Origin: a virus
Direction: 5' to 3' (one strand)
Length of the DNA: 64,000 nucleotides
IMG/VR virus record: IMGVR_UViG_3300037153_000606
Below are positions 41,986 through 48,412 of the stretch, piece after piece. Each line of letters begins with the position of its first letter. The stretch's first letter is position 1. The notes beneath the pieces are model-generated. The model was not told where the DNA came from and did no database searches. It saw only the letters and a list, made by a program, of their open reading frames with translations. Both the position numbers and the translations under genes were made by a program.

Positions 41986-42015
41986 TCCTGTAATTGACAA
42001 CCGCTTATTACAGGA
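41986..42015. promoter_or_regulatory. 9-bp inverted repeat overlapping TTGACA (operator/origin-like)
   Basis: TCCTGTAAT-N12-ATTACAGGA in an AT-rich gap. Confidence 0.6.
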
Positions 42016-42026
42016 TCTTACGTAGC

Positions 42027-43118
42027 ATGGAACACTTCACAGAACTGGCACGGATGCCGCGCAGCAAGGTCGATTGGCTCTGGCGACCTTACATCCCAGC
42101 TCGGCGATTGACGATCATCGAAGGTCATCCGGGCGAGATGAAATCGACACTGACTCTTGATCTTGCGGCTCGGGTCACCCGAGGGATACGGATGCCCGAC
42201 GACACGTCGGGACCCGAGGCGACCAATGTTGTGGTCATCTCGGCCGAGGACGATCCGGGCGACACCATCCGGCCTCGATTCGAGGCTGCCGGTGGTGACG
42301 TTGCCCGGGTGTCGGTGCTCGACCCGAATGCCGAACAACTGTTGTCCTTCCCCGAGGACTCGGCCGTGTTGGAACAGTTCGTGGTGGACCACGAGGTCGG
42401 GCTGGTGATCCTGGACCCTCTCAATGCCTTTCTCGGGGATGGAGTCGGCACCAACTCCGACCACTCAGTGCGTCGCGCCCTACTGCCGCTCGCCCGGATG
42501 GCGACCCGTACCGGCGTGACGATCGTCGTGATCAGACATTTGACCAAGGCAAAAACGGAAGATCCACGCCTTCGTGGCCAGGGATCGATCGCGTTCACCG
42601 GCGCGGTGCGTTCGGGCTTGCTGGTGGCGACAAGGCCGGAAGAACCGGAGGTGCACTATCTGGCGGCGGTCAAGCACTCACTGACCGCACGGCCACCGAC
42701 ATTGATGTTCCGGGCCGCCGAGGTGCCGAAGCTGGATACCGTCAAGATCACCTGGGTGGGCCCGGCGATCGACGTCACCGCCGCCGACCTGTTGACTCCG
42801 GCAGGCAAAGGATCTGACTCGCCCACCATGCAGTGCGCAGTGGCGTTGCGTGGCTACCTGACGCAACGGCACGGACACGCACCTGCCAAGGAAGTGGGCG
42901 ACGAAATGGCCCGCCTCGGGTTCAGTGCCGGAGTGGTGCGGCGTGCCAAGGAAGGGCTGGGGATCGAGTCCAAGCGGCAGCGGTGGGGCCAAGGCGGGAC
43001 CTGGGAGTGGCACTTGAACACGGAGCGGACGCTAGCCGTGGTCGCCCCCATAGATGCCATAGATGTACCACCGACACCTATGGCACCTATGAACGGCGAG
43101 GACGGAGAGCCCAAGTAG
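42027..43118 (+). CDS. AAA_25 / RepA-like ATPase-helicase
   Basis: VDWLWRPYIP..LTIIEGHPGEMKSTL..SAEDD..IRPR..LVILDP..IRHLTK..GSIAF; start could be 41994. Confidence 0.88.
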   Translation: MEHFTELARMPRSKVDWLWRPYIPARRLTIIEGHPGEMKSTLTLDLAARVTRGIRMPDDTSGPEATNVVVISAEDDPGDTIRPRFEAAGGDVARVSVLDPNAEQLLSFPEDSAVLEQFVVDHEVGLVILDPLNAFLGDGVGTNSDHSVRRALLPLARMATRTGVTIVVIRHLTKAKTEDPRLRGQGSIAFTGAVRSGLLVATRPEEPEVHYLAAVKHSLTARPPTLMFRAAEVPKLDTVKITWVGPAIDVTAADLLTPAGKGSDSPTMQCAVALRGYLTQRHGHAPAKEVGDEMARLGFSAGVVRRAKEGLGIESKRQRWGQGGTWEWHLNTERTLAVVAPIDAIDVPPTPMAPMNGEDGEPK

Positions 43119-43144
43119 ACAACTCACAAAATGGCACGTACACT
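43116..43144 (+). promoter_or_regulatory. SigA-like promoter TAGACA-N17-TACACT with an ACAACTCAC box over the -35
   Basis: Canonical 17-bp spacing in an AT-rich gap. Confidence 0.65.
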
Positions 43145-43194
43145 TAGACCTACACACTCAACTACGTACCACGTACTACGAAGGAGCCATCACC

Positions 43195-43359
43195 ATGTAC
43201 GCATCTTCCGCCCAGCGCCCGGCCAACGGTCACGGCTGGGGCCAGTCCTCGCCGTATTCGCCACCCCCGGCGAACGGCAACGGGTGGCACAGTAACTCCC
43301 GTCCCACCACGATGCCTCCGGCCGACGGTCGCGGATGGGGCCGCCCGAACGGCCGCTGA
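43195..43359 (+). CDS. 54-aa peptide with three PA(N/D)GxGW repeats (absent from the ORF track)
   Basis: AAGGAGCCA RBS, upstream promoter, synonymous variation between repeats. Confidence 0.75.
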   Translation: MYASSAQRPANGHGWGQSSPYSPPPANGNGWHSNSRPTTMPPADGRGWGRPNGR

Positions 43360-43397
43360 ACCACACGACTGACCACGAACCGAGGAGCCACCGCACC

Positions 43398-45419
43398 ATG
43401 ACCTGGATCGATGCCGAAGAAGCGTTCGCCGCGCACTTCGACCGTTACGAACCGCGTGTGCCGCAACGCCAGTTGGCGCAGCGCATCGAGGCCGCGTTGG
43501 CCGAGGGCGTCAACCTGATGGCCGAAGCGCCGACCGGTACCGGTAAGTCGTACGCCGGGCTGGTGCCTGCGATCGATTTCGCTGTCGCGGCCCGCCGTCC
43601 GATCTGCGCCGCCACCGGTACGAAGGCGCTGCAGGATCAGTACATCCTCGATCTCGAAGCACTCAAGGCGATGTACTACCCGGACCTCAAGTTCGTGATC
43701 ATCAAGGGGCGCGGCAACTATCTGTGCCGGGCAAAGTTGGCCGAGATCGAGAAGGGCAAGTCCCCCGCCCCTCTGGGGATCGAGATGGACACCCTGCTGT
43801 CCGCCGCAGAGGTTGACGGCGTCAACGGCGACCTGGACCGGATGGGCCTGACCCTGCAGCCCCGCGAGCGCATGGCGCTGACCGCGACGGCTGACGAGTG
43901 CCCCGGCAAGAACTCCTGCCCGTTCGGCAACGTCTGCTTCGCCGAGCGGGTCAAGGCCAAGGCCGCCGAGGCCAATGTAGTGGTCGCCAACCACGCGCTG
44001 GTCGCGGTCGACGCTGTCTTGAAGGCGCAAGGCATCGAGATGCTGCCGCCGTTCTCGGCGATGATCATCGACGAGGCGCACGAGTTCGAGGGGTACGTGT
44101 CCAACGCGCTCGGCACCTCGATCACCGAGCGGGCGCTGACCGACCTGGCCGCCCGGGTCGTCGACTTCACCGGGGACCGCGAGTCGCTCGGCAAGGCCAA
44201 CGTCAGCGCCAAGCTGCTCTTCGACAAGCTGCGCTTCATCTTGCGCCAGTCCGAGCGGCCCAACGAGACCACCGTGGCGATCACCCCGGCGCTGCTACTG
44301 CAGCTGGAGTCCGAGTTGGGTTCGGTGCTGCGCATGCTGGCGCACTTCGAGGGCAAGCTGGCCATGACCGAGGCGTTCACCGACGAGGACGTGATCAAGC
44401 GCCGCCGCCTGCGCAAGCGGGTCACCTCGATGACCGACAAGGTCAAGGCGATCGTGCTGGCCGACTTCGCCGACATGGTCCGCTGGATCGAGGTCGAGTC
44501 CAAGGAGCGTTACGACGGCTCTACCGTCGAGCGGCTCTCCCTGGAGCAGGCCCCGCTGGACGTCGCGCCGTTCCTGGCCCAGGCGCTCTGGCCGTGGCAG
44601 CCCAACGTGCTGATGTCCGCGACGCTGTCCATCGGCGGCGACTTCTCCTACCTCGCCGGGCGGCTCGGGCTGACCGGGCTCAACCCGGACCTGCCGACAC
44701 TGCAGACCTTCCGCTGCCCGACCCCGTTCGACTACCAGAAGCAGTCGGTGACATACGTGCCGCACGACATGCCGCACCCGGTCAAGGAGCAGGCCGCGTT
44801 CCGCTCAGCGGTCAACCTGCACATGGCCGAGCTGGTGCGCGCCTCCGACGGGCGGGCGCTGCTGCTGTTCACCTCCAAGGCCGGTCTGGAGTCGGCCCAC
44901 CGCGCCCTCAAGCCGGTCATCGAGCAGATGGGGCACCGGGTGCTCAAGCAGTACGACGCGCCGACCCGGATGCTGGCCGAGCAGTTCAAGGCCGACGAGC
45001 ACAGCGTGCTGTTCGCGACCAAGTCGTTCTTCACCGGGATGGACATTCAGGGTGACGCGCTGCGGCTGCTGGTGGTCGACAAGCTGCCCTTCCCGGTGCC
45101 TTCGGTGCTGTTCAAAGCACAGTGCGACGCCATCGACGCCAGGGCGGGCGGCAGCTTCAACCAGGGCTCGTTTATGACCCGGCAGGTGCCGGAGATGCAG
45201 ATCACCCTGACCCAGGCGATCGGCCGCCTGATCCGGTCCACTTCCGACCGGGGCTTGGCCGTGGTGCTGGATCCGCGCCTGCACATCATGCCGTCCTACG
45301 GAAAGCGCACTCTCAAGGCGTTGCAGACCACGTTTCCGTCGCCGTTGGTCACCGAGCTGGGCGAGGCGATCGCCTACCTGCGCTCGCTGGAGCCGCAGAT
45401 CGAGGAGGTGCCGGTATGA
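43398..45419 (+). CDS. dinG: DinG/YoaA-family Fe-S DNA helicase
   Basis: Q motif PR.PQ, EAPTGTGKS, KGRGNYLC..C..C..C, DEAH, MSATL, LFTS, KLPFP, QAIGRLIR. Confidence 0.95.
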   Translation: MTWIDAEEAFAAHFDRYEPRVPQRQLAQRIEAALAEGVNLMAEAPTGTGKSYAGLVPAIDFAVAARRPICAATGTKALQDQYILDLEALKAMYYPDLKFVIIKGRGNYLCRAKLAEIEKGKSPAPLGIEMDTLLSAAEVDGVNGDLDRMGLTLQPRERMALTATADECPGKNSCPFGNVCFAERVKAKAAEANVVVANHALVAVDAVLKAQGIEMLPPFSAMIIDEAHEFEGYVSNALGTSITERALTDLAARVVDFTGDRESLGKANVSAKLLFDKLRFILRQSERPNETTVAITPALLLQLESELGSVLRMLAHFEGKLAMTEAFTDEDVIKRRRLRKRVTSMTDKVKAIVLADFADMVRWIEVESKERYDGSTVERLSLEQAPLDVAPFLAQALWPWQPNVLMSATLSIGGDFSYLAGRLGLTGLNPDLPTLQTFRCPTPFDYQKQSVTYVPHDMPHPVKEQAAFRSAVNLHMAELVRASDGRALLLFTSKAGLESAHRALKPVIEQMGHRVLKQYDAPTRMLAEQFKADEHSVLFATKSFFTGMDIQGDALRLLVVDKLPFPVPSVLFKAQCDAIDARAGGSFNQGSFMTRQVPEMQITLTQAIGRLIRSTSDRGLAVVLDPRLHIMPSYGKRTLKALQTTFPSPLVTELGEAIAYLRSLEPQIEEVPV

Positions 45420-45715
45420 CCGATGATCCGGTGGCGACGCTGACCGCGCTCGCGGCGAAACTACGAGCCGAGGCGATCGTCTACATTCGTGGCGAGCAGC
45501 GCGTCCTGCGTGAAACTCTCGCCGAGCACATCGACGGCGTGATCGAACGATGGACCTATTGGCATGATGGTGGCTTCCACCAGTCTCAAGTAATAGTGCT
45601 TGCTGAGGCTGACGTGCGTGAGTTGCTAGCCATCGCCGAAGCGCTCAAAGCCGCGCCGGATCGCCCGGAAAACGACGCCCGAATCATCAATGAGATGGAC
45701 GCGGACCATGTCTGA
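45416..45715 (+). CDS. hypothetical protein, tandem paralogue A
   Basis: DPVATLTALA..LAEHIDGVI..LLA.AEALK shared with the next gene. Confidence 0.75.
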   Translation: MTDDPVATLTALAAKLRAEAIVYIRGEQRVLRETLAEHIDGVIERWTYWHDGGFHQSQVIVLAEADVRELLAIAEALKAAPDRPENDARIINEMDADHV

Positions 45716-45974
45716 CCCGGTGGCGACGCTGACCGCGCTCGCGGAGCGCTACCGCAAGCTCGCTGCGATGCACAATGCACCGCGCAATTCGGCAAGAGAA
45801 TGGATCGCCCTGGCCGAGCACATCGACGGCGTGATCGGGTGGTGCCAGGACCGCGACGATCTGGACCGGAGCGCGCAGTTCGTGGTTGACGACATGATCC
45901 AGGGACTGCTGGCCGTTGCGGAAGCACTGAAACTCTCTAACGAACCACACTCACTGAATCAGGGGGAACCGTAA
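45708..45974 (+). CDS. hypothetical protein, tandem paralogue B
   Basis: Same three blocks as paralogue A. Confidence 0.75.
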   Translation: MSDPVATLTALAERYRKLAAMHNAPRNSAREWIALAEHIDGVIGWCQDRDDLDRSAQFVVDDMIQGLLAVAEALKLSNEPHSLNQGEP

Positions 45975-46469: not shown

Positions 46470-46569
46470 TGCCGGACGGTCGAGGTAGGGTGGCTCCCCT
46501 CCTGTTCGGCACTGCGACAGGCCCCGGTGGTTCGAGGTAGGTGGCTCCTCCCTCACCACCGGGGCCTGT
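46470..46569 (+). ncRNA. twin-hairpin element with a conserved TCGAGGTAGG(G)TGGCTCC apex; candidate sRNA or cis-regulator
   Basis: Two hairpins with unrelated outer stems and the same apical module. Confidence 0.6.
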
Positions 46570-47680: not shown

Positions 47681-48412
47681 ATGCGGCAGACGGCGCAGGT
47701 CGACGTCAGTGTCGTCGGCCTGCGCCACGAGGGTGCGCTCACCGACGAGTCGTGCTACGACGAGCGCACCGGGATGCCGTCCTACACCACCCGCGAGGTC
47801 AGCGAGTTCTTCTTCGGCCACGCCCGGACTTGGCTCTACGACCACCTGCGGCGCGGGCACATCGAGCTGGACGCGGAGCTGGTGGTGATCCCGTTCCGGC
47901 CCTCCGGCAAGGAGTACCGGTGGCGGCTGTGCGACGTGGAGCGCACCGCGATCGGGCTGGCTCAGGGCGGCTACATCGACGCGGTGATGCTCTACCGGGC
48001 ATTGTCGATCGTGCGCCTGGTGGCGGAGAGCTTCGGCTACCTGTCCACCGAGGTGGAACTGGTGGTCGGCGAGCACGACCCGTACCGGACGGAGGTGGCG
48101 GCGGTGCAGACCCAGGAGGTCGTCACCGACGACCTGGACGGCTCCCAGGGAGCCGTGGAGCGGCGTTTCGCGCTCGGCGACATCGAGTACCGCATCGACC
48201 TGACCGAGGCCAACTGGAAGGCGCTGTGCGAGCTGGTGCGCCCGTTCACCGACGCGGCCCGCTCCACTTATCGCAAGGCCACCCACCCGCGTCAGTACGG
48301 GCTCAAGGCGGTGCGTGAGTGGGCCCAGGCGCAGGGTCTCGATGTGGGCCGCACCGGCCCGGTGCCGCACGCGATCACCGACGCCTACCTGCGCGAACAT
48401 GGGCAACGATGA
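47681..48412 (+). CDS. N-terminal HTH fused to a C-terminal Lsr2-like protein
   Basis: YTTREVSEFFFG..WLY (HTH); DDLDG..F.L..Y.IDL..N..L and VREWA..G..V...VP..I.DAY (Lsr2 domains). Confidence 0.85.
   Translation: MRQTAQVDVSVVGLRHEGALTDESCYDERTGMPSYTTREVSEFFFGHARTWLYDHLRRGHIELDAELVVIPFRPSGKEYRWRLCDVERTAIGLAQGGYIDAVMLYRALSIVRLVAESFGYLSTEVELVVGEHDPYRTEVAAVQTQEVVTDDLDGSQGAVERRFALGDIEYRIDLTEANWKALCELVRPFTDAARSTYRKATHPRQYGLKAVREWAQAQGLDVGRTGPVPHAITDAYLREHGQR

Follow-up and report, generated by a model that had tools for sequence, protein, structure and literature searches.

A candidate lineage-restricted small gene ahead of a DinG helicase gene in an actinophage-like virus encodes a predicted disordered peptide with three tryptophan repeats

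What occupies the 279 nt that separate a gene for an AAA_25 ATPase from a gene for a DinG-family helicase in the DNA of an uncultured, actinophage-like virus from soil? The stretch analyzed here (the window, 64,000 nt, 65% GC) belongs to a metagenome contig of about 150 kb from a high-GC, actinophage-like virus, and an empty gap of this length would be unusual there, given how densely the genes are packed, with ATGA overlaps immediately 3′ of DinG. Within the gap lies a small open reading frame (sORF) that runs from ATG 43195 to the TGA at 43357-43359, and whose 54-residue product (P0001) agrees letter for letter with the peptide proposed in an earlier sequence-only reading: three copies of PA(N/D)GxGW, in the forms RPANGHGW, PPANGNGW and PPADGRGW, with tryptophans at residues 15, 31 and 48. 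That reading also called the peptide unannotated, but gene callers have not missed it: the JGI/IMG and Logan gene-call collections already contain the exact peptide, without a name, on four near-identical contigs, the longest of 149,996 bp. We regard the sORF as a credible orphan small gene, a candidate addition to the many small phage proteins that are specific to one lineage. The explanation that we prefer, to which we give somewhat less than an even chance, is that it encodes a genuine lineage-restricted small protein that would act as a multivalent ligand through short linear tryptophan motifs. In favor of this explanation are the translation signals, the coding signal, the constraint on the repeat cores, the predicted disorder and the composition of the peptide, the unstructured RNA and the packing of the genome; it is weakened by the lack of a homolog in our searches, by the commonness of open runs of 54 codons, by codon scores in the low tail of those of real genes and by a substitution test on three copies. 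The coordinates of the features are given in Table 1.

Table 1. Features of the sORF-DinG region, with positions in the 64,000-nt window.
Feature	Position	Strand	Details
AAA_25 ATPase gene, primase/helicase-like	41994-43118		374 aa; upstream neighbor of the sORF
Very stable hairpin	43042-43099	+	within the final AAA_25 ATPase codons; -27.6 kcal/mol, z = -7.1, 0/200 shuffles as stable
Sigma-70-like promoter candidate	43116-43144	+	TAGACA-17-TACACT; 9/12 matches
Ribosome-binding site of the sORF, AAGGAGCCA	43181-43189	+	AAGGAG at 43181-43186, 8 nt 5′ of the ATG
sORF (P0001)	43195-43359	+	54 aa
Repeat core 1 (PANGHGWG)	43219-43243	+	direct-repeat search and degenerate-core search
Repeat core 2 (PANGNGWH)	43267-43291	+	direct-repeat search and degenerate-core search
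Repeat core 3 (PADGRGWG)	43318-43342	+	direct-repeat search and degenerate-core search
Ribosome-binding site of DinG, GAGGAGCCA	43383-43391	+	24 nt past the sORF stop codon
DinG/XPD-family helicase gene (P0002), second cistron	43398-45419	+	673 aa; Helicase_C_2 1.8e-31, DEAD
Lsr2-like gene	47681-48412		

The sequence-only reading had described the sORF as the first cistron behind its own promoter and a strong AAGGAG ribosome-binding site, and the signals that we found bear this out. The promoter candidate is promoter-like in its elements and spacing and is the sole + strand match near the sORF within a scan of 36-56 kb, and its -35 element overlaps the TAG stop codon of the AAA_25 gene. The leader that follows, 76 nt at 47% GC, gives way to an ORF at 72% GC. 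The ribosome-binding site is confirmed as a strong one: Shine-Dalgarno (SD) matches of at least 6 nt at a distance of 4-12 nt precede just 1.5% of all + strand ATG/GTG codons, that of the sORF among them. On the basis of this site, the codon choice described below and the step in GC, we infer that there is a good probability that the sORF is translated in vivo. The sequence GGAGCCA, in the extended form RAGGAGCCAY, is common to the sORF, DinG and the gene at 650-1537 (43183-43194, 43384-43397 and 638-649, respectively), the last two being genes beyond doubt.

Two further observations concern short sequences of the leaders. The complement of RAGGAGCCAY is present on the + strand at 46489-46497 and at 46540-46548, within twin hairpins, and the sORF and DinG would be candidate targets of this hairpin element because both carry RAGGAGCCAY. 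Separately, the two promoter-proximal genes each have TCAACTAC in their leader (626-633, for the gene at 650-1537, and 43158-43165, for the sORF); it occurs six times in the window, always on the + strand, against 0.47 copies expected, and the other four copies lie inside long + strand ORFs. We set it aside as a leader motif on account of those four copies, and its excess may reflect codon usage.

Upstream of the promoter, the hairpin at the end of the AAA_25 gene is built from the tandem 9-mers CATAGATGC and CATAGATGT together with their inverted partners, which span 43049-43091, and it ends 17 nt 5′ of the -35 element. It likely marks the 5′ boundary of the sORF-DinG transcription unit, as a tail-less terminator or an operator; it could be a tail-less terminator, an operator with four half-sites or an element of an origin. 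Our observations suggest a transcription unit of 3.4 kb in which transcription from the promoter candidate would yield the sORF as first cistron, then DinG, then two small paralogous genes, the whole being bounded by the strong hairpin on the 5′ side and, putatively, by the twin hairpins on the 3′ side. The two paralogous genes stand in tandem on the + strand (45416-45715, 99 aa, and 45708-45974, 88 aa; 45% identical, E = 7e-12), the first overlapping the end of DinG by ATGA and the second overlapping the first by ATGTCTGA; Pfam and PHROG searches with a longer reading of the second (45690-45971) returned nothing.

Is the sORF, then, a coding sequence, or simply a run of codons that happens to be open? 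The skeptical answer is that it is a chance ORF, in which repeats made by slippage in a 5′ untranslated region have no selected function at any level. Such lengths free of stop codons are common in GC-rich DNA (by our estimate, an open run of 54 codons at 65% GC has a chance of about 25%, so it is not rare), and the lack of a homolog in our searches is what would be expected of one. However, an SD sequence, an ATG, an open frame, a codon bias and repeat cores that were kept while the spacers decayed all occur together here, and the rough joint chance of the first three within a 279-nt gap is about 0.01. Of the six frames, that of the sORF has the best codon score, albeit its full score (-0.03) falls short of 0.215, the 5th percentile among windows of true genes, because its amino-acid composition is odd. 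The score for synonymous choice, which is 0.135, corresponds to the 7th percentile of real-gene windows; it exceeds the value expected of the shuffled ORF (-0.31 ± 0.15, p = 0.0014) and that of the same peptide with codons drawn according to base composition (-0.215 ± 0.15, p = 0.007), while the same peptide with the phage's own codon usage would give 0.295 ± 0.11 (lower-tail p = 0.08). The synonymous choice of the sORF is compatible with the phage's own usage, and its GC at third codon positions is 0.81. We consider a chance ORF quite improbable.

Could the region act as RNA? Its predicted fold is no more stable than expected (z = -0.11) and it has no match in Rfam, and on these grounds a structured RNA or a riboswitch was rejected. 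The search for terminator-like sites returned none in the interval 41.8-46.2 kb, which includes the stretch between the sORF and DinG. A leader of the tryptophan-attenuator type was also rejected: there is neither an alternative RNA structure nor a terminator before DinG, and the tryptophan codons are dispersed and not consecutive.

The relationship of the sORF to the DinG frame could also be read differently. DinG begins 38 nt past the sORF, with no overlap, and we take its start to be 43398, not the ATG at 43335 within the sORF, because the alignments with its homologs begin at residue 1 (MTW...). We rejected the idea that DinG is extended at its N-terminus from ATG 43335, as the homologs begin with MTW and gene callers choose 43398. 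The DinG form of 694 aa that appears in ORF lists stems from the DinG frame being open from 43296 with an in-frame ATG at 43335; it is the 673-aa form that is supported. A fusion of the sORF and DinG by frameshifting was also discarded: the DinG frame does not open until 43296, the relatives of DinG are equally long, and inspection by eye revealed no canonical slippery site in 43296-43357.

The sORF is internally repetitive. The DNA contains a direct repeat of 3 x 25 nt, with spacings of 48 and 51 nt that are both divisible by 3, and the repeat units of the peptide measure 16-17 codons. When the core is expressed as a degenerate 21-nt pattern, only these three sites are found in the 64 kb, against 0.24 expected by chance, and none of 100 shuffles had three or more; at the peptide level, PA(N/D)GxGW has one additional six-frame match, in a looser form and within an unrelated frame. 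In DNA, identity among the three 8-codon cores is 71-79% and that among the spacers 28-33%, which is the random level, and because of this difference the repeats appear to be an old in-frame triplication that has decayed except in its core.

How were the cores retained? The sequence-only reading had pointed to different synonymous codons at the conserved alanine and glycine positions as a sign of selection on the peptide. These differences are real (alanine GCC/GCG/GCC; glycine GGT/GGC/GGT and GGC/GGG/GGA) and accord with an excess of synonymous over non-synonymous change between the cores (pS 0.33-0.67, pN 0.11-0.17). Variation is found at 4/5 fourfold sites and at 2/15 non-degenerate sites (Fisher p = 0.014), in a test that has three copies and a core defined post hoc; of all eight positions that vary across the 24 nt of the core, only four are third positions. 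We consider this pattern of substitution suggestive of constraint at the level of the peptide.

These data also bear on the possibility that the sORF is non-coding, with the repeats of 21-25 bp serving as binding sites in DNA or RNA (iterons or operators) that would form, with the 9-mers and the AT-rich stretch, an origin or a regulatory region in which the open frame is incidental. Direct repeats spaced by 48 and 51 bp, inverted tandem 9-mers beside a segment of 47% GC, and a position between the genes for a primase/helicase-like ATPase and DinG are all what such a region might be expected to have. Nevertheless, a strong SD sequence and an ATG stand right at the head of the frame, synonymous choice is gene-like (p = 0.001-0.007 against the non-coding nulls), the spacings are divisible by 3 with variation concentrated at fourfold sites, the motif is absent elsewhere in the 64 kb, and the AT-rich stretch is already accounted for by the promoter and leader. 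We therefore think a non-coding role improbable. Iterons and origin repeats vary without regard to codon phase and usually have further copies or an AT-rich unwinding element close by; the sORF has three copies, with none elsewhere in the window, and its variation favors fourfold sites, but an AT-rich stretch and the inverted 9-mers are found immediately 5′ of it.

In Nonomuraea montanisoli (NZ_JABWGN010000008.1; L161:105-173), a perfect in-frame (EPADGEGW)x3 lies inside an ORF like that of AMP-binding proteins/acyl-CoA synthetases; it is unrelated to P0001 and illustrates that PADGxGW repeats can arise from slippage in high-GC DNA.

If the peptide is under constraint, does it have relatives? 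The sequence-only reading had proposed a tBLASTn search for homologs and for variation in repeat number, and this drew a blank: tblastn and blastn yielded no match among 50,697 GenBank phages. A word-indexed search of 5.8 billion clusters returned the peptide itself alone, Pfam and PHROGs gave nothing, the ESM Atlas gave no usable match, and phmmer against the six-frame ORFs of the window and of 162 fetched loci found nothing. A full phmmer search of 1.84 billion representatives produced two non-self matches, neither of them homologous: P0124 is a translation of a eukaryote-like tandem repeat whose likeness is compositional only, and P0125 (E = 2.6e-4) has only a 9-residue strand motif in common with the peptide. 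A DNA pattern of two cores had no match in IMG/VR and three in GTDB genomes, all of them unrelated simple tandem repeats. By our estimate, a homolog that retained all three cores would reach about 60 bits and ought not to have escaped these searches had a gene caller called it.

The neighboring genes offered another route to relatives of the locus. The one other copy of DinG seen (P0004) differs at 1/673 residues (99.9% identical) and is uninformative on the sORF; the nearest relatives at the protein level are P0005 (65%) and P0006-P0008 (54-56%). DinG as a single query in IMG/VR returned nothing, an alignment query in IMG/VR returned 78 loci of at most 47% identity whose upstream genes are non-syntenic and include no such peptide, and relatives among the matches listed for a metagenome alignment query were at most 36% identical. 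A query with AAA_25 led to a single locus, which is distant and not syntenic. Within these collections, and in the DNA of DinG relatives of at most 47% identity, P0001 is a lineage-restricted orphan. Upstream of one DinG relative (IMG/VR UViG_3300049259_000172, L120:3187-3991) are 800 nt with several open frames and repeats rich in G, R and W, which resemble a tandem-repeat array of DNA.

The status of an orphan raises an alternative that we take seriously, though on balance we think it unlikely: that the sORF is translated but that its peptide has no function itself. It might be a young proto-gene that arose when a tandem duplication occurred in frame within the leader of DinG; otherwise, its translation might matter only in cis, by keeping the leader unfolded, by loading ribosomes before DinG, or through an EF-P-dependent pause that tunes DinG. 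Its presence on four near-identical contigs only, its place as first cistron 38 nt 5′ of DinG and its codon scores at the low end of the range for real genes are what this alternative would lead one to expect. Additionally, the peptide contains PPP (residues 23-25) and PPA (41-43), and such motifs slow ribosomes without EF-P. Yet the cores were kept through the decay of the spacers, and synonymous change outweighs non-synonymous change, both of which point to peptide constraint; DinG has its own strong SD sequence and does not overlap the sORF; and neither a terminator nor an alternative RNA structure lies between the two.

What sort of protein would the sORF encode? P0001 is small and basic (5.7 kDa, pI 11.4, GRAVY -1.38) and has no leucine, isoleucine, valine, phenylalanine, cysteine, lysine or glutamate, an absence found in only 8/60,932 stop-free windows of 54 aa from the six frames. 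Its aromatic residues (Y2, W15, Y21, W31 and W48) and arginines are evenly spread among glycine, serine, asparagine and proline, and its C-terminal tail is rich in RG. AlphaFold2, applied to the sequence alone since no alignment could be assembled, gave a pLDDT of 58, a pTM of 0.14 and no secondary structure, and the peptide is thus predicted to be intrinsically disordered, as the sequence-only reading had expected.

That reading had also put forward a modified-peptide precursor. In this form the explanation is that P0001 is the precursor of a ribosomally made modified peptide (RiPP) with three tryptophan cores, and the small size and the short repeated cores that end in tryptophan do recall one; in plants, the precursors of lyciumins carry repeats of a QP(Y/W)GxGxW core. 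But among the neighbors tested (the AAA_25 ATPase, an HTH protein, DinG and small proteins without an assigned family) there is no gene with a radical-SAM, YcaO, P450, prenyltransferase, BURP or protease domain, the peptide has no cysteine and no Ser-rich or leader-like segment, and the sORF is located in a replication module. The sORF has neither the features of a RiPP precursor nor those of a leader-peptide attenuator, and a RiPP precursor is, in our opinion, extremely improbable.

Returning to a genuine small protein as the preferred explanation, we can outline how it may have arisen and how it might work. A unit of 16-17 codons would have been triplicated in frame to give P0001, after which PA(N/D)GxGW would have been retained while the spacers drifted. 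Each core would present one tryptophan on a flexible stretch rich in proline and glycine, with cores about 50 Å apart when the chain is extended, and the three cores may engage repeated pockets of an oligomeric partner; alternatively, the target may be a nucleic acid, bound by stacking of the tryptophans and by the Arg/Gly-rich tail. The mode of binding is here read from composition alone. The partner might be a host protein or one that is handled by the adjacent replication and repair proteins.

A more specific proposal, and in our view a long shot, is that P0001 is a phage "tryptophan hook" whose motifs would plug the pockets of an oligomeric host protein so as to switch it off or redirect it early in infection. 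A defense complex, a ring helicase, a clamp or a protease adaptor would be conceivable targets. Were this to be true, the peptide would be the counterpart in a bacterial virus of the viral GW mimics that act against Argonaute in plants, and would found a new class of disordered anti-host peptides.

Why should such a small ORF matter? Phage genomes are rich in tiny orphan genes, and a few of these are now known as powerful inhibitors of the host's machinery or defenses. P0001 is unusually legible for an orphan, as it consists entirely of one tryptophan-centered motif in triplicate, carried on a disordered and basic scaffold and encoded ahead of a repair helicase. If it binds a defined partner, it would be a compact and easily synthesized probe or inhibitor, and also a clean case of gene birth in which in-frame repeat expansion was followed by selection on a short motif; if it binds none, it would be one more lineage-specific small ORF.

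How does P0001 compare with known systems? The sequence-only reading had likened it to GW hooks, and with the GW/WG Argonaute hooks of GW182/TNRC6 it has in common several Gly-Trp pairs (three in P0001, at spacings of 16-17 residues) that lie more than 10 residues apart in a disordered region where G, S, N and P abound, the arrangement of multiple GW pairs in disorder that characterizes such hooks. Human AGO2 has three evenly spaced pockets, which would match the three tryptophans. There is precedent for viral use of such motifs, as a suppressor from a plant potyvirus is described as a viral GW mimic (PMC12477606). The likeness has its limits, however: the tryptophan pockets vary greatly among prokaryotic Argonautes, full conservation being confined to the AGO proteins of mammals (PMC12477606), P0001 has no sequence relationship to GW hooks, its unit PA(N/D)GxGW is longer, and the protein has just 54 aa. 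The analogy holds in form, for the three GW pairs in predicted disorder, but a bacterial receptor for it is not known, and as a whole P0001 falls short of the GW-hook family.

The prion octarepeat, PHGGGWGQ, to which the peptide had likewise been compared, is another disordered tandem repeat rich in Gly, Trp, Gln and His, and repeat 1 of P0001 includes GHGWGQ. This analogy fails, since the period of P0001 is 16-17 and not 8, and its histidine precedes Gly-Trp in repeat 1 only, follows the tryptophan in repeat 2 and is missing from repeat 3; there is also no homology. A match in letters is offered by P0125, a DUF7743/DUF7034-like protein in which beta-sandwich repeats start with PPANANGWH, near-identical to repeat 2 of P0001. 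In P0125, though, the motif opens a folded domain of 80 residues in a secreted multi-domain protein, and the rest of that domain is absent from P0001.

In composition only, P0001 also resembles the RGG/aromatic low-complexity regions, of the sticker-and-spacer type, in RNA-binding proteins, with its spread of aromatic residues and arginines, its RG-rich C-terminus and its high pI. It differs from them in being far shorter than regions that phase-separate, in having no RNA-binding domain and in being a protein of a bacterial virus.

Finally, there is the likeness to the amino-acid tandem repeats (aaTRs) of Borgs. The DNA units of Borg aaTRs are reportedly multiples of 3, as are those of P0001, and both are disorder-promoting, lineage-specific and encoded in a large viral or extrachromosomal genome. 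Borg aaTRs are described as recently formed and as creating disordered regions (PMC9879509). In P0001, by contrast, the spacers have only about 30% identity while a core of 7-8 residues was kept, and the repeat makes up the whole protein. Because the spacers decayed while the core was kept, the repeat of P0001 is, as judged from these identities, probably older than those of the Borg type and selectively maintained.
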